This document shows, in pieces, positions 28,476-44,093 of a DNA stretch of 64,000 nt. The stretch comes from an uncultured bacterium (GTDB lineage Bacteria > Pseudomonadota > Gammaproteobacteria > Pseudomonadales > JADFDG01): the NCBI GenBank assembly GCA_965232985.1, contig CBDDRC010000012.1, forward strand, positions 140,134-204,133, in the 5' to 3' direction. The notes under the pieces are model-generated. The model was not told the DNA's origin. It saw nothing but the letters and a program-made list of their open reading frames with translations, and searched no databases. The position numbers and the translations under genes were made by a program. Every line of letters starts with the position of its first letter. Position 1 is the first letter of the stretch.

Positions 28476-29456
28476 TCAGGGCAGCAGGTGCTGCACGGCG
28501 TCGCGCTCTTCCTGCAGTTCCTTCTCGGTGGCCTTCATCCTGGCACGCGAAAACTCGCTGATTTGCAGGCCCTGGACAATCGCCCAGTCGCCACCCTTGC
28601 AGGTGACCGGGAAGGAGTAGATCAGGCCCTTGTCGATGCCGTAGGAGCCGTCGGAGTAGACGCCCATCGATACCCAGTCGCCCTCGGCGGTGCCCAGCGC
28701 CCAGGTACGCATATGGTCAATGGCGGCATTGGCGGCAGACGCAGCCGAAGACGCGCCGCGCGCCTTGATCACGGCGGCGCCGCGCTGCTGCACGGTCGGG
28801 ATGAACTCCTGTTCGTACCAGGCGTTGTCGACCAGGCTGCTGGCGGCCTTGCCGTTGACGGTGGTGTTGGCGATGTCCGGGTATTGCGTGGAGCTGTGGT
28901 TACCCCAGATGGTCATCTTTTTGATGTGATTGATGGAGGTGCCGGTTTTCGCGCCGAGTTGCGACAGCGCCCGGTTGTGATCCAGACGGGTCATGGCAGT
29001 GAAATTGCGCGGATCAAGACCCGGTGCGTTGCGCTGGGCAATCAGCGAGTTGGTATTGGCCGGGTTGCCGACCACCAGCACCTTGACATTGCGCGAGGCA
29101 ACTTCGTTCAGTGCCTTACCCTGCACGGAGAAAATCGCGGCGTTGGCTTCCAGCAGATCCTTGCGCTCCATGCCCGGGCCGCGCGGGCGGGCGCCGACGA
29201 GCAGGGCGTAGTCGATATCCTTGAAGGCCACTTTCGGGTCGTCGGTGAGTACCATGCCGGCCAGCAGCGGGAAGGCGCAGTCGTCCAGTTCCATTGCCAC
29301 GCCCTGCAACGCACCGAGCGCCGGGGTGATTTCCAGCATCTGCAGAATCACCGGCTGGTCCGGGCCGAGCATCGAGCCGGAAGCAATGCGGAACAGCAGG
29401 GAATAACTGATCTGGCCGGCGGCGCCGGTCACGGCCACGCGTACGGGCTTCTTCAT
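28476..29456 (-). CDS. mdh: malate dehydrogenase (MDH type 2)
   Basis: [47 protein letters not shown]. Confidence 0.97.
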
Positions 29457-29588
29457 CGGAGGGTCTCCACGGGAGGGTTTGGTGGTCGCGGCGACGGTGT
29501 CTTGTAGACGTCCGGTCGCGAACGGGCGGCGCGGATTATAGGGGCTGGGAGGGCGTGGGGTAACTGCGAATTGCGGCGGGTTCATCCA

Positions 29589-29679
29589 CCTCCGCGCGCC
29601 GGCTGGCCCGGGTGGGTGTCCGGGCTCCGCTCGCTTTCGCTCGGGACCCGGATCACGCCACCCGGCCGCGCCGGGGAGG
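29589..29679. repeat. ~90-nt imperfect GC-rich inverted repeat (REP/MITE-like hairpin)
   Basis: arms CCTCC..CCGGC..CCGGGTGG.GTG.TCCGGG and CCCGGA.CAC.CCACCCGG..GCCGG.GGAGG around a GCTCGCTTTCGCTC loop. Confidence 0.55.
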
Positions 29680-29828
29680 GCAGGTGCGTGATCGCGTTCT
29701 TGCGGCGCCCTGTGGCGGTGCGTTGGGTTTGGGGCGTGCCCGGTGGTGTGCACGGTGGCGGGTATTTGTGCGTCAATTTACTTTAACAATCATTAATAAC
29801 TAATTGAATAATAACAGTTCACAGGGTT

Positions 29829-29844
29829 TGGCAAGCCTCTTGCT
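29829..29844 (+). promoter_or_regulatory. sigma-54 (-24/-12) promoter for the solute-binding protein gene
   Basis: TGGCAAGCCTCTTGCT versus consensus TGGCAC-N5-TTGCW; preceded by an AT-rich tract (about 29775-29820) that could bind IHF. Confidence 0.75.
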
Positions 29845-29909
29845 CTGATTGTTGTGTGCGCTTGCCGTCCGTCGTGGCCTCGCGGCCCGGGGACTTACAG
29901 CATTCGCAA

Positions 29910-30011
29910 GGCGTCTAGGGTTCCGGCCGGTTCGAGATGAAGCGGTGCTGGTCCGAGAGTCGCCGGCCTGCCGGGATGGCGGGTTGCACGGAGGGATAAA
30001 AGCCCGGGAGA
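29910..30011 (+). ncRNA. guanidine-I (ykkC-yxkD) riboswitch #1
   Basis: GGCGTCTAGGGTTCCG...GCTGGTCCGAGAGTCGCC...CACGGAGGGATAAAAGCCCGGGAGA has all ykkC conserved blocks; upstream of the SBP gene. Confidence 0.93.
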
Positions 30012-30076
30012 TCCGCGAACGTGTCGACAGGCGTCTACAGCCCCGCTCCCCACGGAGCCCACTTGAGGATCGACCC

Positions 30077-31171
30077 ATGACCGCGAATGCCCGCACAGCG
30101 TCCCTCCCGCTGCCGCGCCTGTTTCTTGCTGCCCTTGCTGTCTGCCTGCTGGTTGCCTTTAGCGTCGGCCAGGCGCAGGCAGCGCCGAAGACTCACTTCA
30201 AACTCGCCTGGAGCGTCTACGCCGGCTGGATGCCCTGGCCATACGCGGCCGAGAGCGGAATCATCAAGAAGTGGGCCGACAAGTACGGCATCACCATCGA
30301 CGTGAAGCAGGTCGATTACATTGAGTCGATCAACCAGTACACGGCCGGCCAGTTCGATGCCTGCCTGATGACCAACATGGACGCGCTGACGATTCCTGCT
30401 GCCGGCGGTGTCGATACCACCGCGCTGATCGTCGGCGACTACTCCAACGGCAACGACGGCCTCGTTCTCAAGGGCAAGAAGTCACTCAAGGACATCAAGG
30501 GCCAGAAGGTCAACCTGCTGGAGCTGTCGGTGTCGCACTACTTCCTGGCGCGCGCGCTGGAATCGGTCGGTATGAGCGAGCGTGACGTGAAGGTGGTGAA
30601 CACTTCCGACGCCGACATCGTTGCCGCCTGGAGCACCGCGCAGGTCACCGCGTCCGCTGCCTGGAACCCGCAGCTGGCGACCATGATGAAACAGCCGAAC
30701 ACCTACCTCGTTTACGACTCTTCGAAGATTCCTGGTGAAATTCTCGACATGGCGATGGTCAACACGCAGGTGCTCAAGGAAAACCCGGCTTTCGGCAAGG
30801 CACTGGTCGGCGCCTGGTTCGAGACGCTGGCGGTGATGGCCAAAGCCGATGCGAAGGCGAAGGCGGCGAAAGAGTCGATGGCGAAGGCCTCCGGCACCGA
30901 TCTGGCCGGCTATGAGGCACAGCTGAAGGCAACCATGCTGTTCTACACGCCGAAGGATGCCTATGCGTTCACCACCGCGCCGACGCTGGTGACCGGCATG
31001 GATAAGGTGCGCAAATTCTCGTTCGCCAAGGGCCTGCTGGGCAGTGGGGCGAAGGACGTGGATGCCATCGGTATTGTCTTCCCGGGCGGCAAGGTGCTGG
31101 GTAATCCGAAGAACATCAAGCTTCGCTACGACGAGACGTACGTGAAGATGGCGATGGACGGCAAGCTGTAG
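30077..31171 (+). CDS. ABC transporter substrate-binding protein, urea-carboxylase-associated family (probable guanidine-binding)
   Basis: signal peptide, AWSVYAGWMPW, DYIESINQYTAG, MTNMDAL, DYSNGNDG, ELSVSHY; GAGGA RBS. Confidence 0.92.
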   Translation: MTANARTASLPLPRLFLAALAVCLLVAFSVGQAQAAPKTHFKLAWSVYAGWMPWPYAAESGIIKKWADKYGITIDVKQVDYIESINQYTAGQFDACLMTNMDALTIPAAGGVDTTALIVGDYSNGNDGLVLKGKKSLKDIKGQKVNLLELSVSHYFLARALESVGMSERDVKVVNTSDADIVAAWSTAQVTASAAWNPQLATMMKQPNTYLVYDSSKIPGEILDMAMVNTQVLKENPAFGKALVGAWFETLAVMAKADAKAKAAKESMAKASGTDLAGYEAQLKATMLFYTPKDAYAFTTAPTLVTGMDKVRKFSFAKGLLGSGAKDVDAIGIVFPGGKVLGNPKNIKLRYDETYVKMAMDGKL

Positions 31172-31194
31172 GCGTTACTTGCAGGCAAGCACGA

Positions 31195-31440
31195 TGAGCG
31201 GCGGATTTTCCGCCGGCAAACACGTCATGAAAGGTTCACGGAGGCAGTGCAGAGTCAGGCGGTTGAGCGGTTAAGGAAATCGACGTTGCATTCCGGTCAA
31301 CGCACGCAGGGAAGCGTGGCGATGACGAGTGCCGGCTCACGGGCCTTTGCGCCCCAGGGGATGCAGCGACGCGGTTCACCTGGAACCGGACAGGGACGAG
31401 CAAGCAGCGAAGGGGCGCCCATGAAGGGCGCCCTTTTTTT
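31195..31440 (+). ncRNA. candidate GGA-rich small RNA or structured 3' UTR (Csr/Rsm sponge-like)
   Basis: 8 GGA motifs in about 200 nt, including the hairpin CACGC-AGGGAA-GCGTG; ends in a strong terminator; 5' end uncertain. Confidence 0.35.
31410..31440 (+). terminator. rho-independent terminator
   Basis: AAGGGGCGCCC-atgaa-GGGCGCCCTTTTTTT. Confidence 0.88.
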
Positions 31441-31448
31441 GCTTTACG

Positions 31449-32345
31449 TTACAGCTGCCTGTCCGGCCGCCACGCCTCCAGCACCGCCGCCGACAAGATC
31501 AGCGCGCCACCAAACCACTCCATCGGTGCCATCGTTTCCCCGGCCCACCAGGCGGCAGTAATCACCGCTGTCAGCAATTCCATGATGATCAGGATCGACG
31601 CGCGGCCGGCTTCCAGGTGCGTCACGCCCCATTGGGTGCCGGCGGTAGCGACGAGCAGCAACAAGCCGAGCGCGACGGTGTACGCCCAGGTGATCGGCGG
31701 TATGCCGTGCGGCATCGATTGCACGCCGGCGCCAATCAGCAGCGCCGCAATCACCGCGCAGCCGACAAACATCATCGCGACCTTGCTGGGCACCGGCGCG
31801 ATCGATGCGGCGCGGAAGCAGAGGTTGTTCATCGCAAACCCGAAGCCGGAAACGATGGCGAGCACGTCGATCCAGGAGGGCGGCGCCGCCAGCACGGCGG
31901 GGCCGCCGAGAATGAGGAACGCGCCACTCAGGGCAAGCACGACGGCAAGCGCGCGCTGCGCGTCGATTTTCTCGCCGAGAAAAATCTTGCCGCCGAGCAC
32001 GCCCCAGACCGGCAACAGGTAGAACAGCACCATCACCCGCACGACTTCGCCGTTCATCAGGCTGTAGGCAAAGGCGATGTTGGCAATGCCGCCCAGGAAA
32101 AAAATCAGCAGCATGAAGCGCGCTTCCGGTCGCCAGCGCGCGAACTGCATGATCAGTACCGGCGCGAGCAGCAGCGCGAGCGTGCCGTAGGCAACGAGAA
32201 TCTGCGGCAGCCCGGTAACGCCGGCAGTGGCGAGCGCCTTCATCGGCCACCAGGTCGTGCCCCAGAGCACGGAGGCGGCGAGCAAGGCAAGAATGGGCAG
32301 GCGGGCGCTGTGCGCTGTGGAGCCGCTCTTTGGCGATATCTGCAT
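31449..32345 (-). CDS. DMT/EamA family transporter
   Basis: about 10 hydrophobic segments, LWGTTWWPMK, LFYLLPVW..LGGKIFLGEK, ASILIIMELL; last gene of the four-gene operon. Confidence 0.9.
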   Translation of the reverse strand: MQISPKSGSTAHSARLPILALLAASVLWGTTWWPMKALATAGVTGLPQILVAYGTLALLLAPVLIMQFARWRPEARFMLLIFFLGGIANIAFAYSLMNGEVVRVMVLFYLLPVWGVLGGKIFLGEKIDAQRALAVVLALSGAFLILGGPAVLAAPPSWIDVLAIVSGFGFAMNNLCFRAASIAPVPSKVAMMFVGCAVIAALLIGAGVQSMPHGIPPITWAYTVALGLLLLVATAGTQWGVTHLEAGRASILIIMELLTAVITAAWWAGETMAPMEWFGGALILSAAVLEAWRPDRQL

Positions 32346-32371
32346 GACGGGAAGCGGCAGCCTTCAGGTTT

Positions 32372-33232
32372 TCAGGCGGACCGGCGACTCTGTGCCTCGG
32401 TCCAACGCGAAAAGTGTACCCGCTCGGTGCCTGCCATCCAGCGATTGATTTCCCACAGGTCAGCCACCGGGATGCGCGTGAACGGCAGTTCCTGCAGGTA
32501 GCCGTCGGGGCCGAATTCCGGCGTCATGGTGATCACCTGCCTGTCCTGTTGCGCCATTGCCGCCCACAGGATTTCCCACCAGTGCTGGTGGGCGTGCAGC
32601 GCCGCTGCATATTCCGGCGCGGCCGGGTGGGGAACCTGTGGGCCCTGGTCGTAACCGACGCGGGCATGGATGTGGTGTGCCTGCGGTGCCAGTTGCACGA
32701 TGGTGTCGATCTCGGTGTCGAGCAATCGTTCGCAGACCACACACCAGTGGCTGAAGTCAAAGGTGAAGCGCAGTTGCGGGATTGCCCGCGCGAAATCGGC
32801 GGTGATCCAGGGGTTGTACAGCGAGCGCGAGCGGTGCGTCTCGAAGCTGATGACGAGTGATTCGTGCTCGGCCAGTGCTATCGCTGCGCGGAAAAAACGC
32901 AGCGACGCAGTAAACGGCCAGGCGTCGCAGCCGCCGATGCAGGTGATGAACTGCGGGTTCAGTTCGCGCGCCCAGGCGAGCCGCTGCGCGAGCGAGAGCA
33001 GGTGGTCGTCGACACTGGCGCGCCGGTTCGGTACGTAGCTGCCGGCGGTGGTGATCTCGGCGATGTAGAGCAGGCCGTAGCGATCGAGTGCGGCAGCCAG
33101 TGCGGCGCGCTCTTCGGCGGTTTCCGGTATCTGGCCTTCAAGGCCCTGGAAACCGTTGGCCACGGCTTCGGCGGCAATCGTGTCGATATCGCCGCTGGCG
33201 CCCCACAGCGTCCGGAACATCCGCAATTCCAT
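32372..33232 (-). CDS. sugar-phosphate isomerase/epimerase-like TIM-barrel protein (xylose isomerase-like / AP endonuclease 2 fold)
   Basis: FRTLWG, FETHRSR, DFSHWCVVCERLL, HIHARVG, TPEFGPDGY putative metal ligands; starts 2 nt after the upstream stop. Confidence 0.85.
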   Translation of the reverse strand: MELRMFRTLWGASGDIDTIAAEAVANGFQGLEGQIPETAEERAALAAALDRYGLLYIAEITTAGSYVPNRRASVDDHLLSLAQRLAWARELNPQFITCIGGCDAWPFTASLRFFRAAIALAEHESLVISFETHRSRSLYNPWITADFARAIPQLRFTFDFSHWCVVCERLLDTEIDTIVQLAPQAHHIHARVGYDQGPQVPHPAAPEYAAALHAHQHWWEILWAAMAQQDRQVITMTPEFGPDGYLQELPFTRIPVADLWEINRWMAGTERVHFSRWTEAQSRRSA

Positions 33233-33234
33233 GG

Positions 33235-34032
33235 TCACTCCCGCGGCACAGGAAATCGGTCTCGGGCCCGGAAAAATTCCATGTCGTGATTGGGCCACAG
33301 GTCGGCGCCTTCATGGACTGCCAGTGTTTTCAGTTTGCGAATGCTGGTGAGTGCAAGGTCGGTGCGGTCCTGCCAGCACAGGCCCGGTGCGACTTCGTCG
33401 CGCAGGTTCTCGATCAAGTCGGCAGCATCGCCGCAGAGCAGGATCGGTGATCCCTTTGGTAATTCGATCAGCAACGACAGGTGTCCGGCAGTGTGACCAG
33501 GTGTCTCGATCGCGTGCACGCCGTCGCAGAGCGTGTATTCGGCGCATTGCACGCACCAGAGCACCGGATGGCTGCCATGGTCTTCGCGGAAGTCGTGGGC
33601 GAAGTAGGCGCTGTCGGCCGGTTCACGGGCGGCGTCGAGTTCTTTCTCATGGACATGCACATCGGCGTGGGCGAATTCGTGCAGGCCGCCGGCGTGGTCG
33701 AAATGCAGGTGGCTGCAGATGATGCAGTCGACATCCTTTGCATCGAGCCCGAGCTGTGCGAGCCGCGCCGGCAGGCGTTGTTCGTCGGTCACGGTCGGCG
33801 GGCCGAAGGCGAAGTCCGGCGTTGCGTAGAAGCGGGCGCGCAGTGCCGGGTCGTTTACCTTGCGGTAGTCGCAGCCGACGTCGTACAGGATGCGGCCGTT
33901 GTTCGTCTCGATGAGGTACGCGAGGATCGGCGCCTCGATGATTGAACCCGCATCGCGATCACGCGTCGACAACGATTTGTCGTAGCGGTGGGTGCCGACC
34001 AGCAGTGGCCAGAATTTCATTACGGAGGTCAC
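33235..34032 (-). CDS. metallo-beta-lactamase-fold hydrolase, N-acyl-homoserine lactonase family
   Basis: ILYDVG, SHLHFDHAGG (HxHxDH), TPGHTAGH, CGDAA, PNHD; start GTG 34032 or ATG 34020. Confidence 0.9.
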   Translation of the reverse strand: MTSVMKFWPLLVGTHRYDKSLSTRDRDAGSIIEAPILAYLIETNNGRILYDVGCDYRKVNDPALRARFYATPDFAFGPPTVTDEQRLPARLAQLGLDAKDVDCIICSHLHFDHAGGLHEFAHADVHVHEKELDAAREPADSAYFAHDFREDHGSHPVLWCVQCAEYTLCDGVHAIETPGHTAGHLSLLIELPKGSPILLCGDAADLIENLRDEVAPGLCWQDRTDLALTSIRKLKTLAVHEGADLWPNHDMEFFRARDRFPVPRE

Positions 34033-34065
34033 GTTGGGCTGGTCCGCTGCATCAGTGCGTGATCT

Positions 34066-35076
34066 TTAGTGCGTGGTCAGAAAGGAAACGCCGTCGACGC
34101 CGATGAATTCGCGGCCGCGCTCGGGGTAGGGGATTTTTTCGAGGCCCATGTCGGCGGGATCGGCATTCAGCAGGCGCCGGGTGCGAAAACGGTGATAGGC
34201 GCGCAACTGATTGGCGAAGGGGATCGACTGGCCGGTATCGTCGCCGTAGATTTCGCGCTGCAGCGCCGGCAGCCGGTGCCACGGCTGGTTGGGTTTGTCG
34301 TGATGGACGTTGTGGTAGCCGAAATTCAGCGTGAACAGGTTCAGCCACGGATGGCGCACGGAATGCAGGTTGGTGAAGGTATTGCGGTGTTCCCAGGCGG
34401 CATCGTAAGCGGGTTTTGCCGGGCGTTCGGCGTCGAGACGTTCGTCCACGGCGTAGGTGTGCTGAAACGCGTCCATGAAGCGCAGTACATGCAGCATCAG
34501 GAAATACGCCAGCGGGTAGAGTAGCAGCACACGCGGCGCGTACAGGGTGAGCAGGCCGAACAGTGTGGCGCGTATGGCGAGCGTAACGGCAACATGCAGG
34601 CGGCGATGCCGGCGCGGTGCGTACGTGAATGGCAGCACAATCACCAGCAGGTGCATGGCGAGGTCGAAAGCCGGGATGTATAGCCATTCGAGTGCGTGCA
34701 GGATTTTCACAAGGTGCGGCTGGCGGGCCAGCGCGGGCCGATAGTCGAAGGCGACCACATCAGCACGATCCACATGGTGGCGAAAATGTTTGTGGCGCAC
34801 GTCTGCGTACGTGGCATAACAGCCGCCGCACAACCACAGCAGCACCTTGCCAACGCGGGCATTGCCCGCGTTGGTGTCGAACAGCGTGTTGTGCGCGCAC
34901 TCATGCACAAGATAGGCGGCAATGATCATGGCGTGGCCGAGCAGCAGCACACCGGCGAGGTTTGCGGCCAGCGCGTCGCGGGTGATCAGCAGGAGGCCGA
35001 GTGCGTAGCCCCCGAAGGCATAGCCGAAGGCGAGCAGGTTGGGTTGTCGGCTGTCGGGATATTTGCAGTGCAGCAT
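34066..35076 (-). CDS. membrane fatty-acid-desaturase-superfamily di-iron enzyme
   Basis: His boxes HECAH, HFRHH and HNVHH plus TM segments; ATG 35076 lies 11 nt after the riboswitch P2 hairpin. Confidence 0.9.
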   Translation of the reverse strand: MLHCKYPDSRQPNLLAFGYAFGGYALGLLLITRDALAANLAGVLLLGHAMIIAAYLVHECAHNTLFDTNAGNARVGKVLLWLCGGCYATYADVRHKHFRHHVDRADVVAFDYRPALARQPHLVKILHALEWLYIPAFDLAMHLLVIVLPFTYAPRRHRRLHVAVTLAIRATLFGLLTLYAPRVLLLYPLAYFLMLHVLRFMDAFQHTYAVDERLDAERPAKPAYDAAWEHRNTFTNLHSVRHPWLNLFTLNFGYHNVHHDKPNQPWHRLPALQREIYGDDTGQSIPFANQLRAYHRFRTRRLLNADPADMGLEKIPYPERGREFIGVDGVSFLTTH

Positions 35077-35087
35077 GGCAAGTCCGG

Positions 35088-35139
35088 GCAGGTCGTCCCG
35101 CAACAAGGCAAACCTGACGCGGGTCGTCCCGCGTCAGGT
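35088..35139 (-). ncRNA. guanidine-II (mini-ykkC) riboswitch #1, leader of the desaturase operon
   Basis: minus strand: ACCTGACGCGGG-ACGA-CCCGCGTCAGGT, linker TTGCCTTGTT, GCGGG-ACGA-CCTGC; two GC-rich hairpins with ACGR loops just before the RBS and ATG. Confidence 0.9.
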
Positions 35140-35160
35140 GTTGGGTATCGGCGGAGCCGC

Positions 35161-35176
35161 AGCAAGAAGTCTGCCA
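35161..35176 (-). promoter_or_regulatory. sigma-54 promoter for the desaturase operon
   Basis: minus strand TGGCAGACTTCTTGCT; predicted +1 near 35150, about 11 nt before riboswitch P1. Confidence 0.78.
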
Positions 35177-35239
35177 AGGCCCGTGCGGGAGCTGCATGCC
35201 AGGTTCGAGCGGGTCAGTTCAGGTAAAAGCACAAGTCTG

Positions 35240-35319
35240 CGCACTGCTATGGTGCGCTGCGGTGATCGTCTGCGCCGGGGGTGCGCACTGCGCTGGCGCG
35301 GCCGGCACCAGCATCGCGC
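35240..35319. promoter_or_regulatory. NtrC-like enhancer boxes shared by the divergent sigma-54 promoters
   Basis: cGCAC-TGCTATG-GTGCg at 35240-35256 (GCAC-N7-GTGC); near-matches GCAC-N7-GCGC at 35285-35299 and 35305-35319. Confidence 0.6.
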
Positions 35320-35350
35320 GGAAATCCGTTACTTCACGGCTGCCAGGCGT

Positions 35351-35366
35351 TGGCACGCATCCTGCT
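35351..35366 (+). promoter_or_regulatory. sigma-54 promoter for the permease-ATPase-cgdAB-carboxylase-atzF operon
   Basis: TGGCACGCATCCTGCT. Confidence 0.75.
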
Positions 35367-35430
35367 GTTGCAAGATCTGCAGGCGATGGGGTTACGGCAG
35401 CGAGCGCGTCGTGATCACGGCGCAAAAACA

Positions 35431-35528
35431 GGCGACTAGGGTTCCGGCTCGCGTTTCGCGAGCGACTGGTCCGAGAGTTGCCGGCCTCCGGAACAGGAGG
35501 TGACACGGAGGGATAAAAGCCCGGGAGA
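35431..35528 (+). ncRNA. guanidine-I (ykkC-yxkD) riboswitch #2
   Basis: GGCGACTAGGGTTCCG...ACTGGTCCGAGAGTTGCC...CACGGAGGGATAAAAGCCCGGGAGA; the last 25 nt are identical to riboswitch #1. Confidence 0.93.
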
Positions 35529-35598
35529 CAGGATGCGCAGGAGTGCGTCCGCGCGTCTTCCGTCGCCCAGGTTCCGTCAGTCACCCGGAGGAGTGCAT

Positions 35599-36432
35599 GT
35601 GAAGCGTCTGATCAACCAGCGGCCGTCGCGTCTGGGTGCGTTGCTGCTCGCAGTCATTCCTTTTCTCGTCATCGTCGCGATTTACCTGTTCGCCTCCGCG
35701 CAACGGCATGCGGAAAACCCCGAGGATCGTCTGCTGCCGGGGATCAGCCAGCTGGCCAGCGGTGTCTCGCAGCTGGCGTTCGTGGCAGATCCGCGTACCG
35801 GTGATGTCCTGCTGTGGGTGGACTCCGCTGCGAGCCTGAAGCGCCTTGCCTGGGGCGTTGGCTTGTCTGCCTTGCTTGGCCTGTTGTTCGGTATGCTCAC
35901 CGGCATGTTGCCGCTGGCGCGATCGCCGCTGGCGCCGTTCATTGCGGTGCTGTCGCTGGTGCCGCCGATGGCAATCCTGCCGATTCTGTTCATCGCGCTG
36001 GGCCTCGACGAACTGTCCAAGGTGGTGCTGATCGTGCTCGGTGTCGCGCCGTTCATCATGCGCGACATCCAGCAGCGCGTGCTGGAAATTCCCGCCGAGC
36101 AACTGGTGAAGGCGCAATCGTTGGGGATGAACAGTTGGCAAATCGCATTGCGGGTAATTCTGCCGCAGGTAACGCCGCGGTTAATTGATTCGGTACGGCT
36201 GTCGCTCGGTGCGGCGTGGATTTTTCTGATTTCCGCAGAAGCAATCGCTGCTGAACAGGGCCTCGGTTACCGCATTTTCCTGGTACGTCGTTACATGGCG
36301 ATGGATACCATCCTGCCGTACGTGGTGTGGATCACGCTGCTGGCCTTCCTGATGGATCGCCTGCTGGCAGCGCTCAACCGCCGCGCCTTCCCCTGGCTTT
36401 ATACGGGCCGCACGGCCGGGGAGAGCGCATGA
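35599..36432 (+). CDS. ABC transporter permease (NitT/TauT type, urea-carboxylase-associated)
   Basis: about 6 TM helices, VPPMAILPILFI, EQLVKAQSLG (EAA-like loop), EAIAAEQGLGYRIFLVRRY; GGAGGA RBS before GTG. Confidence 0.92.
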   Translation: MKRLINQRPSRLGALLLAVIPFLVIVAIYLFASAQRHAENPEDRLLPGISQLASGVSQLAFVADPRTGDVLLWVDSAASLKRLAWGVGLSALLGLLFGMLTGMLPLARSPLAPFIAVLSLVPPMAILPILFIALGLDELSKVVLIVLGVAPFIMRDIQQRVLEIPAEQLVKAQSLGMNSWQIALRVILPQVTPRLIDSVRLSLGAAWIFLISAEAIAAEQGLGYRIFLVRRYMAMDTILPYVVWITLLAFLMDRLLAALNRRAFPWLYTGRTAGESA

Positions 36433-37193
36433 GCGTCATTGCCGTTGTACCCGGAGCGCGTACGAAGACGCCGCCGCAAATTCGCATTCGCAAGTTGTGG
36501 AAGTCGTACGGCGATCGCGTTGTGCTTGAAAACCTGTCACTCGATGTGCACGCAGGCGAGTTCGTTTCCATCGTCGGTGCCTCCGGTTGCGGCAAGACCA
36601 CCTTCTTTCGCATGTTGCTCGGCGAGGAACAACCCAGCCGTGGCGACATGCTGCTCGATGGCCAGCCCTGGCCGCAGGAGCCGGATGCCGATCGTGGTGT
36701 GGTATTCCAGAAATATTCGGTATTTCCGCATCTGACGGCTCTGGCCAACGTGCGGTTGACGCTGGAGGTGCCGAAAGCGCGTGTGCTGGGCCGATTGTTT
36801 GGCGCGGCACGACGTGATGCCGACGAAAAAGCCCATGCGATGCTCGCCAGTGTCGGCCTTGCCGACAGTACGAACAAATATCCGCACGAGCTTTCCGGCG
36901 GCATGCAGCAGCGCCTTGCGCTTGCCCAGTCGCTGGTTGCAAAACCGAAAATCCTGTTGCTCGACGAGCCGTTCGGCGCGCTTGATCCGGGCATGCGCGC
37001 CGATATGCACGGCCTGATGAAATCACTGTGGCGGCAGCATCGTTTCACCGTGTTTATGGTGACGCATGATATCGAGGAAGGCTTCAGCCTGGGCTCGCGG
37101 ATGCTGGTGTTCGATCGCGTTCGCGTCGATCCGCAGGCGCCGCAGCGCTATGGTGCGCAGATTACCTATGACCTGCCATTGAGGACGGAATGA
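36429..37193 (+). CDS. ABC transporter ATP-binding protein
   Basis: GASGCGKT, LSGGMQQR, LLLDEPFGALD, VTHD. Confidence 0.95.
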   Translation: MSVIAVVPGARTKTPPQIRIRKLWKSYGDRVVLENLSLDVHAGEFVSIVGASGCGKTTFFRMLLGEEQPSRGDMLLDGQPWPQEPDADRGVVFQKYSVFPHLTALANVRLTLEVPKARVLGRLFGAARRDADEKAHAMLASVGLADSTNKYPHELSGGMQQRLALAQSLVAKPKILLLDEPFGALDPGMRADMHGLMKSLWRQHRFTVFMVTHDIEEGFSLGSRMLVFDRVRVDPQAPQRYGAQITYDLPLRTE

Positions 37194-37933
37194 TGCAAGC
37201 CGGAATTCTTTATGCAGACACGCTTGGCGCCGGTTGCCACTGGTCGCAGCTCATGCCGAAAGGTCATGTGCTACGCCTCACCGACATCCACGGCGGCGCC
37301 AATATCGGCATGCTGATGTACAACCCGCTGGCAACGCTGGAGCGCTTGAATATTCCCGATACGCTCAAGTGTCAGCACACGTTCCGGCTGACCAGGGGGC
37401 ATTGCCTCTACTCGGACATGGGGCGCATTTTTTGCAGCATTGCGCGCGATGATTTTGGCTGGCACGACAGCGTCTGCGGCACCTGTGATCGCACCCTGGT
37501 CGAATCACGCTGGGGCAGGTTGACCTACCAGCAGGCGCGTAACGGGATGCACCGCAATGGCCGCGACGGGTTCCTCATCGAACTTGCCAAGCATGGCATG
37601 GGCAAAAAAGATCTCGCTGCCAACCTGAATCTGTTCAGCAAGGTTGTTGCCGATGCCGAAGGCAATTTGGTGCTCGCGGCAAAAGCGCCGGCCGGCGCCG
37701 TAGTTGAGCTGCGTTTCGAGATGGATACGCTGGTGGTGCTGCACAGCTGTCCGCATCCGCTGGATTTTTCTGCCGAATGGCCGGCACAGCCGGTGCGTTA
37801 CGAAATTTTCTCAAGCGAGACGGCGGCGGCTGTCGATCCGGCCGTGCTCGCGCGTGCGGAAAACGGGCGCGGTCTGCTGAACAATCGGCTTTATCAGCTC
37901 GGTTGCGCCTCGAGCGCCTGCGGAGGTCACTGA
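37190..37933 (+). CDS. cgdA: carboxyguanidine deiminase subunit A (urea amidolyase-associated protein UAAP1, DUF1989)
   Basis: [42 protein letters not shown]. Confidence 0.88.
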
Positions 37934-37934
37934 G

Positions 37935-38573
37935 ATGCTGCGCGAGAGTGCGTTGAAAAGTGAGGACGCGTCGTACCGAGCAACCATTGGTGCCGGCGAC
38001 TACTGGATGCAGGTGGTGAAGGCCGGCCAGACGCTGCGCCTTGTCGATGTCGAGGGTAACCAGGCTGCCGACACGCTGTTCTACAACGCTGCCAGCCCGA
38101 CCGAGCGCTACAGTGCCGTCGACACCATCCAGCGGCAGGCGAATCTCTATCTGGGTGTCGGCACCCAATTGATCTCGACCGAAGGCCGGGCGCTGCTGGA
38201 AATTGTCGCCGATACCTGTGGTCGTCACGACACGCTCGGCGGCGCCTGCGCCACCGAAAGCAACACCGTGCGTTATGCGCTCGAAAAAAAGTGCATGCAT
38301 GCCTGCCGCGACAGTTACCTGTTGGCCGTCACCGAGAACGACCAGTACGGCCTGAGCAAGCGTGACATCACCCACAACATCAATTTCTTCATGAATGTGC
38401 CGGTGACGCCTGAGGGTGGCCTGATGTTCGCCGATGGCGTTTCCGGGCCGGGTAAATACGTGGAGTTGAAGGCGCTGATGGATGTGATCGTGCTGCTGTC
38501 GAATTGCCCGCAGTTGAACAATCCGTGCAATGACTACAACCCGACACCAATCGAGGTGCTGGTGTGGGATTGA
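37935..38573 (+). CDS. cgdB: carboxyguanidine deiminase subunit B (UAAP2, DUF1989)
   Basis: [48 protein letters not shown]. Confidence 0.9.
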
Positions 38574-38639
38574 GGGGCGATGTGCGGTCCGTCGCAGCGT
38601 GCTGCCGGTACGGGTGAAAAATCAATGTAGTTGAATAAA

Positions 38640-38684
38640 CCTGTCGGGACGGCCCGCAGGGTTAAAAAAGGCAGGACGACCTGC
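38640..38684 (+). ncRNA. guanidine-II (mini-ykkC) riboswitch #2, internal to the operon, leader of the carboxylase
   Basis: CCTGTCGGG-ACGG-CCCGCAGG, linker GTTAAAAAAG, GCAGG-ACGA-CCTGC, then GCGGGA and ATGATGATG. Confidence 0.88.
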
Positions 38685-38696
38685 GCGGGAATGATG

Positions 38697-41600
38697 ATGT
38701 TCAAGAAGGTCCTGATTGCCAACCGCGGTGCCATTGCGGTGCGCATCATTCGCACGTTGCGCCGGCTCGGCATTGCACCGGTGGTGGTTTACACGAAGGC
38801 AGATGCCGATTCGCTGCATGTGCGTCTTGCCGATCACGCCGAGTGCATCGGCGAGGGTCCGGCGGCAGATTCCTACCTGCGCGGCGATCGCATCCTCGAA
38901 GTCGCGGCGCGTTATGGCGTGGAGGCGATCCATCCGGGTTACGGGTTTCTCTCGGAGAACACTGATTTTGCTGCGGCCTGTGAAGCGCGCGGGATTGCGT
39001 TCGTCGGTCCGCGACCGGAGCACGTGCAGGCATTCGGGTTGAAGCACAGGGCGCGTGAGCTTGCCCAGGCCAACGGCATTCCGCTGTCGCCCGGTACCGG
39101 CCTGCTCGATACGGCGGATGACGCGGTGAGCGCCGCCGCGTGCATCGGTTACCCGGTGATGCTGAAAAGCACGGCCGGCGGTGGCGGCATCGGCATGCAG
39201 GTTTGCCGGGATGCGAACGAACTCGCTGCGGCTTTTGCGTCTGTGCAGCGGCTGTCGAAAAACAATTTCGGCAATGCCGGGCTGTTCCTTGAGAAATACA
39301 TCGAGCGGGCGCGGCACGTCGAGGTGCAGGTGTTCGGCGACGGCAAGGGCGGGGTGATTGCCCTCGGCGAGCGCGACTGCTCGCTGCAGCGCCGCAACCA
39401 GAAGGTGATCGAGGAGACGCCGGCGCCGGGCCTGCCGGAGGCGGTGCGCAAGGCGCTGCACGAAACGGCGGTGCGACTGTGCGCGGCGGTCAACTACGCC
39501 AACGCCGGCACCGTCGAGTTCATTTACGATGCGCTCACTCAGGAGTTCTACTTCCTGGAGGTCAACACCCGTCTGCAGGTCGAGCACGGTGTTACCGAGA
39601 TGGTGACCGGCATCGACATCGTCGAGCTGATGCTGCTGCAGGCGGCCGGTGAATTGCCGCCACTGGCGACGATTCGTGTCGAGCCGAAGGGCTGTGCCGT
39701 GCAGGCGCGCCTCTACGCCGAAGATCCCGGCAAGGATTTCCAGCCGCAGTCCGGCCTGCTCACGTATGTGTCGTTTCCTGAGGCGGACAACCTTAACCTG
39801 CGCATCGACCGCTGGATTGAGGCGGGTGTTAACGTGCCACCGTTCTATGATCCGCTGCTGGCGAAAGTCATTGCATATGCGCCGACCCGCGCTGCGGCGC
39901 TGGCCGCGCTGGATCATGCACTCGACACCACGATCGTCGCCGGCATCGAAACCAATCGCGATTACCTGCGGCAGCTGTGCCGCGATCCGGTGCTGGCGCG
40001 CGCTGAGATGACCACGCGCTATCTGTCGCGCTTCGAGTACCGGCCGCTCACCGTCGACGTGCTCGATGGCGGTACGCACACCACGGTGCAGGATCATCCG
40101 GGGCGTCTGGGTTACTGGGATGTCGGCGTGCCGCCGTCTGGCCCGTTCGACGATCTTGCGTTCCGGCTCGGTAATCGTTTGCTGGGCAACGGTGCAAAGG
40201 CGGCCGGACTTGAAATCACGCTCAATGGCCCGACGCTGCGTTTTCGCACAGCAACGACGATCGTGCTGACGGGCGCGGAATTGCCGGCAACGCTGGACGA
40301 TATGCCGGTTCCCTACGGGCAAACGGTTGCTGTTACTGCCGGCGCGGTGCTGCGCATCGGGCGGGCAGGTGCTGCTGGCGCGCGTGCATTTCTGTGTGTC
40401 AAAGGCGGCATCGACGTGCCGGACTATCTGGGCAGCAAGTCGACGTTCACGCTCGGCCAGTTCGGCGGCCACGGTGGCCGCACGTTGCGCGTGGGCGACG
40501 TGCTGCATTTGTCCGCTAGCGCTGCGGAACCCGCGCACGGCGTCCTGCCGGAGCGCCTGCGCCCGGCAATCAGCAACAACTGGCAACTACGCTGCCTGTA
40601 CGGCCCGCATGGTGCGCCGGATTTTTTCACCGCTGGCGATATCGACACCTTCTTCGCTACCGAATGGGACGTCCACTACAACTCCTCGCGCACCGGCGTG
40701 CGGCTGATTGGCCCGAAGCCGGAATGGGCACGCACCGATGGCGGCGAAGCCGGGCTGCATCCGTCAAATATCCACGACAACGCCTATGCCATCGGTGCGG
40801 TGGATTTTACCGGCGACATGCCGGTGATTCTTGGCCCCGACGGCCCCAGCCTCGGCGGTTTTGTGTGCCCGGTGACAGTGATTGCTGCCGATTTGTGGAA
40901 GCTTGGCCAATTGCGGCCCGGTGACAAGATAGTTTTCGTTCCCGTGACGCCGGCAGCGGCGACGGCGATCGAACAGGCGCAGGATGAAGCAATCCGCACG
41001 CTGCAAGCTGCAGCGCCGGTGCGTATCGAGACAGTACGTGCGCCGGCGATCATCAAGTCGCTGGGCATTCGTGATCACGTTACCGGCGTTACCTACCGTG
41101 CCGCCGGCGACAAGTACCTGCTGGTCGAATACGGCCCGCTGATGCTCGACATCAACCTGCGTTTTCGCGTGCATGCGTTGTGGCAATGGCTGCGCGCGGC
41201 AAAATTGCCCGGCATTATCGATCTCACGCCGGGTATTCGCTCGCTGCAGGTGCACTATGACAGTAAGCGTCTTGCGCGCGCGAAACTGCTAGATATTCTT
41301 GCGCATGCAGAAGCCGAACTTGTCGGTATTGACGACATGAGCGTGCCGTCGCGTATCGTCTGTCTGCCGTTGAGCTGGGACGATACAGCGACAAAAATCG
41401 CCATCGAAAAATACATGCAGTCAGTGCGCAAAGATGCACCTTGGTGCCCGTCAAACATCGAGTTCATCCGGCGCATCAACGGCCTGACCGATGAGGCAGT
41501 GGTAAAACGCATCGTGTTCGACGCCGAATACCTGGTCATGGGGCTGGGTGATGTATACCTCGGCGCGCCGGTGGCGACGCCGCTGGACCCGCGCCATCGT

Positions 41601-42296
41601 CTGGTCACCACCAAATACAACCCGGCGCGCACCTGGACACCTGAAAATGCGGTGGGCATCGGCGGCTCCTATCTGTGCGTCTATGGCATGGAGGGCCCCG
41701 GTGGCTATCAGTTTGTCGGCCGCACGGTGCAAATGTGGAACCGCTGGCGCAAGACACCGGAATTCACCGAGCCCTGGCTGCTGCGCTTTTTCGACAAAAT
41801 CCGTTTCTTCCCGGTCAGTGGCGAGGAATTGCTGGAGATGCGCGAGGCATTTCCGCGCGGTGGCTATGCACTGCGCATCGAGGAGTCGACATTCAGTCTG
41901 CGGCAGTACAACAATTTTCTTGCCGAAAACGACGCCAGCATCCGGGCTTTCAAGGCGACGCAGCAGGCGGCGTTCGATGCCGAGCGTGAACGCTGGCAGC
42001 ATGCCGGCCATGGGGATCTTGCCCTGCCGCTGGAAGCAGAAATCGGGTCAGACAGGGAGGTAGTGCTGGCCGATAACGAAGTGCTGTTGCAATCGCATGT
42101 GCCGGGCAGCGTCTGGCAGCTGGCAGCACAAATCGGTGACGTGCTCGAAGCCGGGATGCCGGTGGTCATTGTGGAGTCGATGAAGATGGAAATTCCGGTA
42201 GCAACGCCGCGCCGCCTGCGACTGAAGAAAATACTGGTGGCAGCCGGTGCCCAGGTGCAGCCTGGCACGCCCTTGGCCATCGGCGAATATCTGTGA
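38697..42296 (+). CDS. uca: urea-carboxylase-family enzyme, predicted guanidine carboxylase
   Basis: biotin carboxylase (KVLIANRG, EVNTRLQVEH), CT domain with SNIHDNAYAIGAVDFTGD, KYNPART, BCCP ESMKM; alternative starts 38691 and 38694. Confidence 0.95.
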   Translation: MFKKVLIANRGAIAVRIIRTLRRLGIAPVVVYTKADADSLHVRLADHAECIGEGPAADSYLRGDRILEVAARYGVEAIHPGYGFLSENTDFAAACEARGIAFVGPRPEHVQAFGLKHRARELAQANGIPLSPGTGLLDTADDAVSAAACIGYPVMLKSTAGGGGIGMQVCRDANELAAAFASVQRLSKNNFGNAGLFLEKYIERARHVEVQVFGDGKGGVIALGERDCSLQRRNQKVIEETPAPGLPEAVRKALHETAVRLCAAVNYANAGTVEFIYDALTQEFYFLEVNTRLQVEHGVTEMVTGIDIVELMLLQAAGELPPLATIRVEPKGCAVQARLYAEDPGKDFQPQSGLLTYVSFPEADNLNLRIDRWIEAGVNVPPFYDPLLAKVIAYAPTRAAALAALDHALDTTIVAGIETNRDYLRQLCRDPVLARAEMTTRYLSRFEYRPLTVDVLDGGTHTTVQDHPGRLGYWDVGVPPSGPFDDLAFRLGNRLLGNGAKAAGLEITLNGPTLRFRTATTIVLTGAELPATLDDMPVPYGQTVAVTAGAVLRIGRAGAAGARAFLCVKGGIDVPDYLGSKSTFTLGQFGGHGGRTLRVGDVLHLSASAAEPAHGVLPERLRPAISNNWQLRCLYGPHGAPDFFTAGDIDTFFATEWDVHYNSSRTGVRLIGPKPEWARTDGGEAGLHPSNIHDNAYAIGAVDFTGDMPVILGPDGPSLGGFVCPVTVIAADLWKLGQLRPGDKIVFVPVTPAAATAIEQAQDEAIRTLQAAAPVRIETVRAPAIIKSLGIRDHVTGVTYRAAGDKYLLVEYGPLMLDINLRFRVHALWQWLRAAKLPGIIDLTPGIRSLQVHYDSKRLARAKLLDILAHAEAELVGIDDMSVPSRIVCLPLSWDDTATKIAIEKYMQSVRKDAPWCPSNIEFIRRINGLTDEAVVKRIVFDAEYLVMGLGDVYLGAPVATPLDPRHRLVTTKYNPARTWTPENAVGIGGSYLCVYGMEGPGGYQFVGRTVQMWNRWRKTPEFTEPWLLRFFDKIRFFPVSGEELLEMREAFPRGGYALRIEESTFSLRQYNNFLAENDASIRAFKATQQAAFDAERERWQHAGHGDLALPLEAEIGSDREVVLADNEVLLQSHVPGSVWQLAAQIGDVLEAGMPVVIVESMKMEIPVATPRRLRLKKILVAAGAQVQPGTPLAIGEYL

Positions 42297-42320
42297 ACGA
42301 ATCTCGGTGAGAGGATACAG

Positions 42321-44093
42321 ATGAATATCGATACAAAGACCATGCCGTTTACCATCGCTTCACTTCGCGCGGGTTATCTTGGCGGCGTACTTGAACTGGC
42401 TGCCGTTTTTGCCGTCGTGCGCAACCGGATCGCCGCGCACAACAACAATCCGATCTGGCTTTACCTCGCCGATGATCTCGCGTTGGCACGCGAATTCGAT
42501 CGCGTACGTGCGCTCGATATGAACACCCATCCGCTGTGGGGCATCCCGTTTGCCGTCAAGGACAACATCGATGTGGGTGGCATGCCGACAACCGCCGGAT
42601 GCCCGGCATTTGCCCGCATGGCGCATGCCGATGCGCCGGTTGTTGCTGCTTTGCGTGCAGCCGGTGCGATTGTCGTCGGCAAGACCAACCTCGACCAGTT
42701 TGCGACCGGTCTGGTGGGCACGCGCTCACCCTATGGTGAAGTGCACAATGCCATTGTTCCGGCAATGATCAGCGGCGGTTCGAGTTCCGGCTCGGCAGTG
42801 GCGCTCGCACTTGCGCAGGTAGCGTTCGCGCTCGGCACCGACACGGCCGGTTCCGGCCGCGTACCGGCGGCGCTGAACGGGCTGGTCGGCATAAAGCCGT
42901 CGCGCGGCTTGCTGAGCACGCGTGGTGTCGTGCCGGCCTGCCGGACACTGGATTGCGTCAGCCTGTTTACGCGTGATATCGCCGATTCTGCGGTTCTATT
43001 GCCGCTGGTTCGTACCTGCGATCCGCTTGATGCATACAGTCGGCAATCAACACTGGATGCATCACTTGCTGAAAAAATCGTCATTGGCGTGCCGCGTGCC
43101 GACCAGCTTGCTTTTTTCGGCAATCACGAGGCGTCGGCGTTGTTTACGTCGGCCCTCAATCAGGTGCGCGCCAGCGGGGCGGACATTGTCGAGATCGACT
43201 TCCTGCCATTCATCGAAGCCGGGCAGTTGCTCTACGAAGGCCCTTGGGTTGCCGAGCGGTTTCTGGTGGCGAAAAAGCTGCTCGCTGCGCAGCCGGATGC
43301 GTTGCTGCCGGTTACCCGCGCGATCATCGGTGGCGGTGAACATCTCAAGGCCGACGACGCCTTTGCGGCCTTGTACCGGTTGCAGTCGTTGCGCCGCGCC
43401 ATTGAACCTGTGCTGGCGACAGTGACTGCCATCCTCACACCGACCATCGGCACGCATTTCACCCGCGCGCAGGTGGCAGCAGATCCGGTGCGTTTGAACA
43501 CTGAGCTGGGTTACTACACCAATTTCATGAATTTGCTCGATCTTGCTGCTATTGCCGTACCGCACGGGCGGTTCGCCAGCGGTCTGCCGGCGGGCGTAAC
43601 GCTGTTTGCTGATCATGGCAGCGACTTCAAGCTGCTGAGCTTGGCGGCGAAATTGTTTCCGGACGCGTCCGGTGCTTACGTGCCCCCGGCGGATGACATG
43701 CCACGCCTCGACATACTCGTTTGCGGCGCCCACATGCTGGGCCTGCCGCTAAACGCGCAGTTGACCGGGCGCGGGGCTATTTTTCGTGAGGCGGTGAAAA
43801 CCGCGTTGTGCTACCGCCTTTACGCATTGCCCGGCGGCCCGCCGTTCCGTCCGGCGCTGCTGCGTGTGGCGCCAGGTGAGGCAGGTGGCAGTATTAATGC
43901 GGAAATCTGGTCGTTGCCGGCGTCACGCTGGGGTGATTTCGTGCAATTGATTCCGGCGCCGCTGGGTATTGGCACCGTCGAACTCATGGACGGCCGCCAA
44001 GTGAAGGGTTTTATCGGTGAGGGTTACGCGGCCAGTGGGGCACGGGATATCACTGCGCTTGGCGGCTGGCGGGCGTTTCTGGCCACGGGTTGA
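42321..44093 (+). CDS. atzF: allophanate hydrolase
   Basis: amidase signature VKDNID, GGSSSGS, GTDTAGSGRVPA; LGYYTNFMNLLD; C-domain VCGAHM..LPLN, PLGIGTVEL. Confidence 0.95.
   Translation: MNIDTKTMPFTIASLRAGYLGGVLELAAVFAVVRNRIAAHNNNPIWLYLADDLALAREFDRVRALDMNTHPLWGIPFAVKDNIDVGGMPTTAGCPAFARMAHADAPVVAALRAAGAIVVGKTNLDQFATGLVGTRSPYGEVHNAIVPAMISGGSSSGSAVALALAQVAFALGTDTAGSGRVPAALNGLVGIKPSRGLLSTRGVVPACRTLDCVSLFTRDIADSAVLLPLVRTCDPLDAYSRQSTLDASLAEKIVIGVPRADQLAFFGNHEASALFTSALNQVRASGADIVEIDFLPFIEAGQLLYEGPWVAERFLVAKKLLAAQPDALLPVTRAIIGGGEHLKADDAFAALYRLQSLRRAIEPVLATVTAILTPTIGTHFTRAQVAADPVRLNTELGYYTNFMNLLDLAAIAVPHGRFASGLPAGVTLFADHGSDFKLLSLAAKLFPDASGAYVPPADDMPRLDILVCGAHMLGLPLNAQLTGRGAIFREAVKTALCYRLYALPGGPPFRPALLRVAPGEAGGSINAEIWSLPASRWGDFVQLIPAPLGIGTVELMDGRQVKGFIGEGYAASGARDITALGGWRAFLATG

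Follow-up and report, generated by a model that had tools for sequence, protein, structure and literature searches.

The guanidine operons closest to the locus described here combine two riboswitch classes. As reported in the sections on its riboswitches and accessory genes (Sinn et al. 2025, PMC12508155), the operon of Vreelandella boliviensis begins with a class I guanidine riboswitch, followed by ATP-binding cassette (ABC) importer genes and cgdAB, which encode carboxyguanidine deiminase. An internal class II riboswitch lies between cgdB and the carboxylase gene, and the accessory genes mgdH and mgdL, which encode a soluble 2-oxoglutarate/Fe(II) dioxygenase and a lyase that demethylate methylguanidine and so feed the pathway, depend on class II. 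For Raoultella, Erwinia, and Klebsiella, a 2025 review (PMC12186494) places importer and carboxyguanidine deaminase genes behind class I and, directly downstream, carboxylase and allophanate hydrolase genes behind class II. A third setting is that of sugE/gdx genes (e.g., in E. coli), in which a Guanidine-II element of two ACGR hairpins followed by a Shine-Dalgarno (SD) sequence serves as a translational ON switch. Here, we describe a stretch of 64,000 nucleotides (nt) (positions 140,134-204,133, forward strand, of contig CBDDRC010000012.1, assembly GCA_965232985.1; hereafter the window) from an uncultured Pseudomonadales bacterium (JADFDG01; genome of 2.62 Mb, 99.94% complete), in which four guanidine riboswitches of two classes accompany genes for guanidine import and breakdown.

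The mixed-class core of this locus (a class I switch leading the operon and a class II switch ahead of the carboxylase gene) has been published already, and the window adds one more example, with the same allocation of genes to the two classes as in all of the above catabolic operons. Unlike in V. boliviensis, the gene for the substrate-binding protein (SBP) is split off and has its own class I switch and promoter, and the accessory genes are set apart in a divergent operon that has a class II switch to itself. Since the proteins of that operon are unrelated to MgdH and MgdL (the operon holds PF00487, PF00753, PF00892, and PF01261-type proteins and no 2-oxoglutarate dioxygenase), the likeness, namely, class II-controlled accessory enzymes that may feed the pathway, is one of proposed function only. 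Control by sigma-54 or NtrC goes unmentioned in the V. boliviensis sections cited above; likewise, the available text on Raoultella, Erwinia, and Klebsiella describes two switches, versus four here, and mentions no desaturase-family operon. In contrast to the sugE/gdx systems, the class II elements of the window precede no small multidrug resistance (SMR) exporter, but a catabolic enzyme and an oxygenase operon, and a search of the whole genome revealed no SMR/Gdx exporter gene. Thus, the locus goes beyond the known core in its arrangement of four switches, in the sigma-54-type promoter at each of the three units, and in placing an oxygenase operon behind a class II switch.

We consider it likely, at a probability of roughly 75%, that this locus is a guanidine nitrogen-scavenging regulon under two layers of control, i.e., sigma-54-type promoters and guanidine ON riboswitches. 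That proposal builds on elements, positions, patterns of conservation, and gene identities that we observed directly. In the first layer, three sigma-54-type promoters, probably activated by NtrC, would tie transcription to nitrogen shortage; in the second, four riboswitches would tie expression to the ligand. More specifically, class I no. 1 would gate the monocistronic binding-protein gene; class I no. 2 would gate the permease, the ATPase, and both carboxyguanidine deiminase subunits; nested class II no. 2 would gate translation of guanidine carboxylase and allophanate hydrolase; and class II no. 1 would gate the divergent operon encoding a membrane di-iron oxygenase, a metallo-beta-lactamase-fold (MBL) hydrolase, a TIM-barrel protein, and an EamA transporter. 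The two classes would differ chiefly by ligand range and serial position rather than by affinity.

RESULTS

Riboswitches and genes of the locus

Riboswitches were detected with Rfam covariance models at their gathering scores (63 bits for Guanidine-I, RF00442; 32 bits for Guanidine-II, RF01068). Three elements reach the gathering score, and the fourth is supported by its position and by covariation (see below). The search of the whole 2.62-Mb genome yielded these four guanidine riboswitches and none besides, and no further guanidine riboswitch class was found at cut-off within the window. An initial annotation of this DNA, made from the letters alone, had placed two class I and two class II elements at coordinates that agree with the scan to within a few bases; its assignments of the SBP, the permease operon, the desaturase operon, and the carboxylase are likewise borne out by domain and family models (Table 1).

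Both class II elements consist of tandem, G-C-closed ACGR hairpins joined by a short linker, with an SD sequence and an AUG within 7 to 13 nt downstream. In the element that leads the desaturase operon, both loops read ACGA; an SD-like GGA comes after hairpin 2, and the distance from the match to the AUG is 11 nt. In the element before the carboxylase gene, the loops are ACGG and ACGA, the closing pairs are G-C, and the SD sequence GGGAA follows immediately 3'.

The four-switch layout recurs. A locus from a Moraxellaceae assembly (L044) carries all four switches at gathering score, and the two same-genus relatives have four each (L032 with L121; L045 with L120); the fourth switch, which became visible in the extended stretches L120 and L121, is of class I and precedes a binding-protein gene that stands apart. 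Three switches were found within the locus DNA examined for L033, L037, and L042. Given the four switches in L044 and in the same-genus relatives, the design belongs to a lineage and not to this genome alone. In those same-genus relatives, 2.9 to 5.3 kb of extra DNA separates the SBP and EamA genes (L121:3131-6002 and L120:3390-8725), unlike in the window, where a shared terminator is the only separation.

The catabolic genes fit guanidine use. Adjacent DUF1989 paralogs of the UAAP1 and UAAP2 types lie beside the carboxylase gene, the arrangement by which CgdAB is recognized. The carboxylase carries Asp in place of Asn1330 of Kluyveromyces lactis urea carboxylase (AVDFTGD aligned to AINFTGD; 3va7_A index 737 is equivalent to 1330 in the 1,829-residue 5i8i_A, with chain index assumed to equal residue number). 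In the available text of PMC11410670, Asp at this position separates guanidine from urea carboxylases; thus, judging by its TIGR02712 architecture and this residue, the window protein qualifies as a guanidine carboxylase.

Table 1 Features of the guanidine locus in window coordinates
Feature	Position	Strand	Evidence or remark
Sigma-54-type promoter TGGCAAGCCTCTTGCT, SBP unit	29829..29844	+	One mismatch; 59 nt 5' of riboswitch; AT-rich stretch upstream
Guanidine-I aptamer no. 1, SBP leader	29904..30012	+	RF00442, 83.5 bits (cut-off 63), full model 1-107
SBP of guanidine ABC importer, monocistronic	30077..31171	+	TIGR03427, 548 bits (cut-off 334)
Strong hairpin terminator between convergent SBP and EamA genes	31409..31437		12-pair stem, 8 G-C pairs, T-run
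EamA/DMT-family transporter, last gene of operon	31449..32345	-	PF00892, E = 2.1e-18
TIM-barrel protein, 286 aa, PF01261-type	32372..33232	-	Homologs carry PF01261; P0001 99% identical
MBL-fold hydrolase, AiiA/4-pyridoxolactonase-like	33235..34032	-	PF00753; AiiA lactonases, E about 1e-27
Membrane di-iron oxygenase, fatty-acid-desaturase family	34066..35076	-	PF00487, 112.6 bits; first gene behind class II
Guanidine-II no. 1, desaturase operon leader	35088..35135	-	RF01068, 40.9 bits (cut-off 32)
Sigma-54-type promoter TGGCAGACTTCTTGCT, desaturase operon	35161..35176	-	One mismatch to consensus
Two NtrC-like sites, GCACTGCTATGGTGC (35241-35255) and GCACTGCGCTGGCGC (35285-35299)	35241..35299		Between divergent promoters
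Sigma-54-type promoter TGGCACGCATCCTGCT, permease operon	35351..35366	+	One mismatch to consensus
Guanidine-I aptamer no. 2, permease operon leader	35425..35529	+	RF00442, 97.7 bits (cut-off 63), full model 1-107
ABC importer permease	35599..36432	+	PF00528; GTG start, SD GGAGGAG
ABC importer ATPase	36429..37193	+	PF00005; ATG overlaps permease stop
Carboxyguanidine deiminase subunit, DUF1989, UAAP1 type	37190..37933	+	TIGR03425, 297 bits (cut-off 206)
Carboxyguanidine deiminase subunit, DUF1989, UAAP2 type	37935..38573	+	TIGR03424, 326 bits (cut-off 285); cgdB position by carboxylase
Guanidine-II no. 2, operon-internal	38641..38684	+	RF01068, 23.7 bits, below cut-off 32; conserved position and covariation
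Guanidine carboxylase (annotated family: urea carboxylase)	38697..42296	+	TIGR02712, 1839.7 bits, above cut-off
Allophanate hydrolase	42321..44093	+	TIGR02713, 718.5 bits (cut-off 511)

Outside this set, the malate dehydrogenase open reading frame at 28476-29753 (minus strand) has about 100 codons ahead of the point at which its family models begin (residue 100 of 425), and its listed start is therefore probably too far upstream.

The class II element in front of the carboxylase gene

The operon-internal element was recovered by a permissive scan only (E = 0.0088 in a 401-base search), and hairpin 1 contains a bulged U. Together with the score below the Rfam cut-off, these features would fit a chance pair of hairpins, leaving only three real riboswitches in the locus. 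Conservation in relatives makes this hardly credible. Among 60 relatives searched, 13 possess cgdB, and in 10 of these 13 a Guanidine-II match lies on the coding strand 20 to 235 bases downstream of that gene (6 at or above the cut-off, 4 below); no such match was found downstream of cgdB in the other three loci (L008, L009, and L017). The same cgdB-carboxylase junction carries the motif in further loci reached via the desaturase gene (L032, L033, L037, L042, L044, L045, L062, and L068). In an alignment of 18 junction elements, the GGACGRCC cores are invariant. Across the 15 distinct sequences, positions 3 to 6 from the loop of hairpin 1 each show 3 to 4 standard pair types; in hairpin 2, positions 3 and 5 are variable. 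Similarly, the desaturase-operon leaders of relatives combine covarying stems with invariant loops (17 distinct leaders). Finally, a class II element at the equivalent intergenic position was validated by experiment in V. boliviensis, according to the riboswitch section of that study (PMC12508155). We therefore take the fourth element as genuine, on comparative grounds.

Most rows of the junction alignment also show an SD-like purine run and then an ATGTTC start, on which basis we place the start of the window carboxylase at 38697. In addition, a 7-pair helix is predicted between the 5' flank of the element (38631-38637) and the carboxylase start codon region (38698-38704). Loop-loop docking of the class II hairpins might open this helix; the fold is no more stable than those of shuffled sequences (z = -1.23), and we base no claim on it.

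Expression platform of the class I switches

The genes 3' of the two class I aptamers (a TIGR03427 SBP in one case, importer genes and cgdAB in the other) provide the context in which switching ON by guanidine is predicted. An intrinsic-terminator mechanism was considered for both leaders and rejected, as a terminator scan of the window found no intrinsic terminator after either aptamer. In the window and its relatives together, a terminator-like site was seen in only 2 of the 24 class I leaders examined (three others, with too little downstream DNA, were left out). The clearer of these two is at L033:5481-5582 (minus strand), where the 3' CGGGAGA segment of the aptamer forms a hairpin that is followed by a T-run; expression platforms may thus differ among relatives.

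In the predicted folds, the SD sequence of the SBP leader is paired with the 3' tail of the aptamer, and that of the permease leader with the 5' strand of the second aptamer helix. The long permease-leader fold exceeds shuffled sequences in stability (z = -2.44); the short leader folds mostly do not. Since both class I aptamers lack an intrinsic terminator downstream, we infer that translation initiation is the main point of control for all four switches, with a possible contribution from Rho-dependent polarity.

Sigma-54-type promoters upstream of the switches

The window was scanned for sites with at most one mismatch to TGGCACN5TTGCW, the consensus that has GG at -24 and GC at -12. Three of the four sites found fall in the three leaders, on the correct strand and 25 to 59 bases upstream of the riboswitches, in agreement with the initial annotation, which had read a sigma-54 promoter at each of the three transcription units. 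These motifs recur in relatives. In loci with the divergent arrangement, a sigma-54 motif lies 25 to 108 bases 5' of the class II switch in 8 of 9 and, on the permease side, 10 to 53 bases 5' of the class I switch in 6 of 9; where a relative has a separate SBP switch, the motif lies 50 to 60 bases upstream (3 of 3). The background frequency of the motif is 0.169 per kb of strand. Spacers within the motifs vary between loci, and one of the nine loci (L035) shows no motif on either side of its divergent region.

Two of the three matches to an NtrC-like pattern in the window fall within the 175 bases between the divergent promoters (2.27 matches expected window-wide). As a general feature of such loci, these sites were rejected beyond the genus. 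The genome encodes rpoN and also ntrC (752 bits versus a cut-off of 558.6). Within the limits of sequence evidence, these findings support gating by nitrogen status. A literature search found no paper that connects sigma-54 or NtrC with guanidine riboswitches or with guanidine carboxylase.

The desaturase-family oxygenase operon

The first gene of the tightly packed divergent operon encodes a protein with the three histidine boxes HECAH, HFRHH, and HNVHH. The MBL hydrolase scores under all equivalog cut-offs. The start codon of the TIM-barrel gene (ATG at 33232) lies 2 nt past the MBL stop; homologs of this protein are annotated as "sugar phosphate isomerase/epimerase," and the window copy itself has no Pfam match. 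Searches against solved structures returned no sequence match for the oxygenase at E values up to 1 and a single, meaningless match for the TIM-barrel protein (E = 0.49).

Homologs of the oxygenase were collected in 80 loci. In 17 of the 77 loci having upstream DNA, a tandem ACGR hairpin pair precedes the oxygenase gene by no more than 150 bases; outside these positions, 1.7 Mb of strand sequence contains only 9 such pairs. A looser hairpin pattern adds L039, L040, and L060, in which hairpin 1 is imperfect or short-stemmed. Pattern matches in L054 and L063 were false positives inside the oxygenase coding region, and the structure-aware count excludes both. Partner genes were counted in the 29 loci that have an oxygenase of at least 50% identity to that of the window and are covered for 2 kb or more on the downstream side; nine others were set aside because their downstream stretch was too short. 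An MBL gene is present in 20, a TIM-barrel gene in 13, either one in 26, both in 7, an EamA gene in 25, and cgdB in 14.

In three Campylobacterota loci (Sulfurovum, Helicobacteraceae, and Sulfurimonadaceae assemblies; L061, L062, and L068), all four oxygenase-operon genes lie within one guanidine operon, in the order class I switch, SBP, permease, ATPase, cgdA, cgdB, oxygenase, MBL, class II switch, carboxylase, TIM barrel, EamA. Allophanate hydrolase was not detected in the locus DNA examined for these three. At L095:4971-12928, the oxygenase homolog (43% identical) has an NMT1-type binding protein on one side and an isochorismatase-family hydrolase on the other, and a permease and an ATPase come next; on the other strand, genes for an MBL protein, a short-chain dehydrogenase/reductase, and allophanate hydrolase face the oxygenase unit, and that facing unit has a Guanidine-I switch, which diverges from these genes. 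A third ordering of the same parts is seen in two Oxalobacteraceae loci (Herbaspirillum; L088 and L098), where, on one strand, the genes for the carboxylase and allophanate hydrolase are directly followed by the class II motif and the oxygenase gene.

The operon is thus tied to guanidine switches across Gammaproteobacteria, Burkholderiales, and Campylobacterota, and gene association links the oxygenase family strongly to guanidine and nitrogen-rich small molecules, not to lipid genes. We propose that the operon belongs to guanidine metabolism and most likely frees guanidine from a substituted guanidine; more specifically, by analogy with MgdH/MgdL, the oxygenase would release guanidine oxidatively, and the MBL and TIM-barrel proteins would process the oxidized intermediate. 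In a literature search, no paper was found on this operon; the papers examined on desaturases in a guanidine context mention only the unrelated soluble arginine desaturase NapI.

An alternative is that the operon is a stress or detoxification unit, combining membrane-lipid modification with an EamA exporter and induced by guanidine in place of the missing Gdx. Its first gene is indeed of the fatty-acid-desaturase family, EamA and SMR proteins belong to the same drug/metabolite transporter (DMT) superfamily, and this nearly complete genome lacks Gdx, the usual target of class II switches; with the exporter absent, the detoxification explanation stays alive. However, its constant partners are hydrolase-type and TIM-barrel enzymes rather than lipid genes; the Campylobacterota loci embed the oxygenase between cgdB and the carboxylase; and the L095 homolog sits inside an NMT1-type ABC importer operon, by an isochorismatase-family hydrolase and facing allophanate hydrolase. 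On balance, we regard detoxification as unlikely and a role in freeing guanidine as the better account.

DISCUSSION

The initial annotation had proposed a tiered response to guanidine, gated by nitrogen status. The gating part is supported by sequence, through the placement and recurrence of the promoters and the presence of rpoN and ntrC; the tier by riboswitch class is not supported by published numbers. As far as the cited texts go, the class I switch of V. boliviensis binds guanidine with a dissociation constant of 44 µM and does not bind methylguanidine, and its internal class II switch binds guanidine at 93 µM and methylguanidine at 83 µM (Sinn et al. 2025, PMC12508155). Likewise, Huang et al. 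(PMC5486947) quote for class II a value of about 50 µM with a Hill coefficient of 1.4, an affinity "similar to" that of class I, and a class II pocket that holds methylguanidine, aminoguanidine, and agmatine. The documented difference between the classes is one of ligand range: class II also binds methylguanidine, and class I does not.

A two-threshold model would have class I, with its single site, open uptake and the deiminase at low guanidine and class II open the ATP-consuming carboxylase and the oxygenase operon only at higher levels. The cooperative binding of two ligands by class II (the Hill coefficient given above), the two-fold weaker class II of V. boliviensis, and the nesting of the carboxylase switch behind class I, by which the two responses could multiply, all speak for it. 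Nevertheless, the model is little supported, because the published affinity gap is only about two-fold; furthermore, the desaturase operon is not nested and has its own promoter, and the deiminase step comes after the carboxylase, so that the proposed order meets no obvious metabolic need. We hence consider two thresholds improbable. A two-fold shift in affinity may still leave room for some ordering, and a class II switch nested behind class I could, on its own, make the carboxylase response steeper and move it toward higher guanidine. If the nested switch is linked to class I through polarity, the carboxylase response would be the product of the two, and ordering would arise without any difference in affinity.

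Division by ligand range is a possibility that we put forward tentatively. Class I would report free guanidine and switch on import and the deiminase, and class II would report methylguanidine-like compounds as well and switch on the carboxylase together with a second, non-homologous conversion route (the oxygenase, the MBL and/or TIM-barrel enzyme, and the EamA transporter) that releases free guanidine, with all units under an AND gate with NtrC and sigma-54.

Several observations weigh against a guanidine regulon under two control layers or against parts of it, as follows: (i) the fourth riboswitch alone scores under the Rfam cut-off (23.7 versus 32 bits); (ii) sigma-54-like sites occur at chance count in the 64-kb window (4 observed versus 4.19 expected), and hence the argument rests on their placement and conservation, and the relatives that carry them are kin, not independent trials; (iii) the NtrC-like sites lie at one of the three units and recur in only 2 of 9 relatives, both of the same genus; (iv) the SD-sequestering folds are minimum-energy predictions, and two of the four short leader folds are no more stable than shuffled sequences (z = -1.23 and -0.01); (v) no electron donor gene is present in the oxygenase operon; (vi) loci with an oxygenase of less than 50% identity are poor in the partner genes (MBL in 5 of 42, TIM barrel and cgdB in none), and only L088 and L098 among them have the class II motif upstream; and (vii) the oxygenase gene precedes the class II switch in L061, L062, and L068 and lies immediately behind a class I switch in L070. 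The exceptions under (vii) show that class II is not an obligatory partner of the oxygenase and thereby weaken the idea of class II as the sensor of the oxygenase substrate.

The natural sources of guanidine were still called an open question in reviews of 2025. In this regard, the operon of oxygenase, hydrolase, TIM-barrel protein, and transporter is a concrete candidate for the missing guanidino-compound enzymes, and since it is also found in cultured strains, e.g., Thioalkalivibrio sulfidiphilus ALJ17 (L060) and Acidocella aromatica DSM 27026 (L064), the proposal is testable. If the two control layers operate as proposed here, guanidine use would be a two-key system, in which nitrogen hunger and the ligand are both required.

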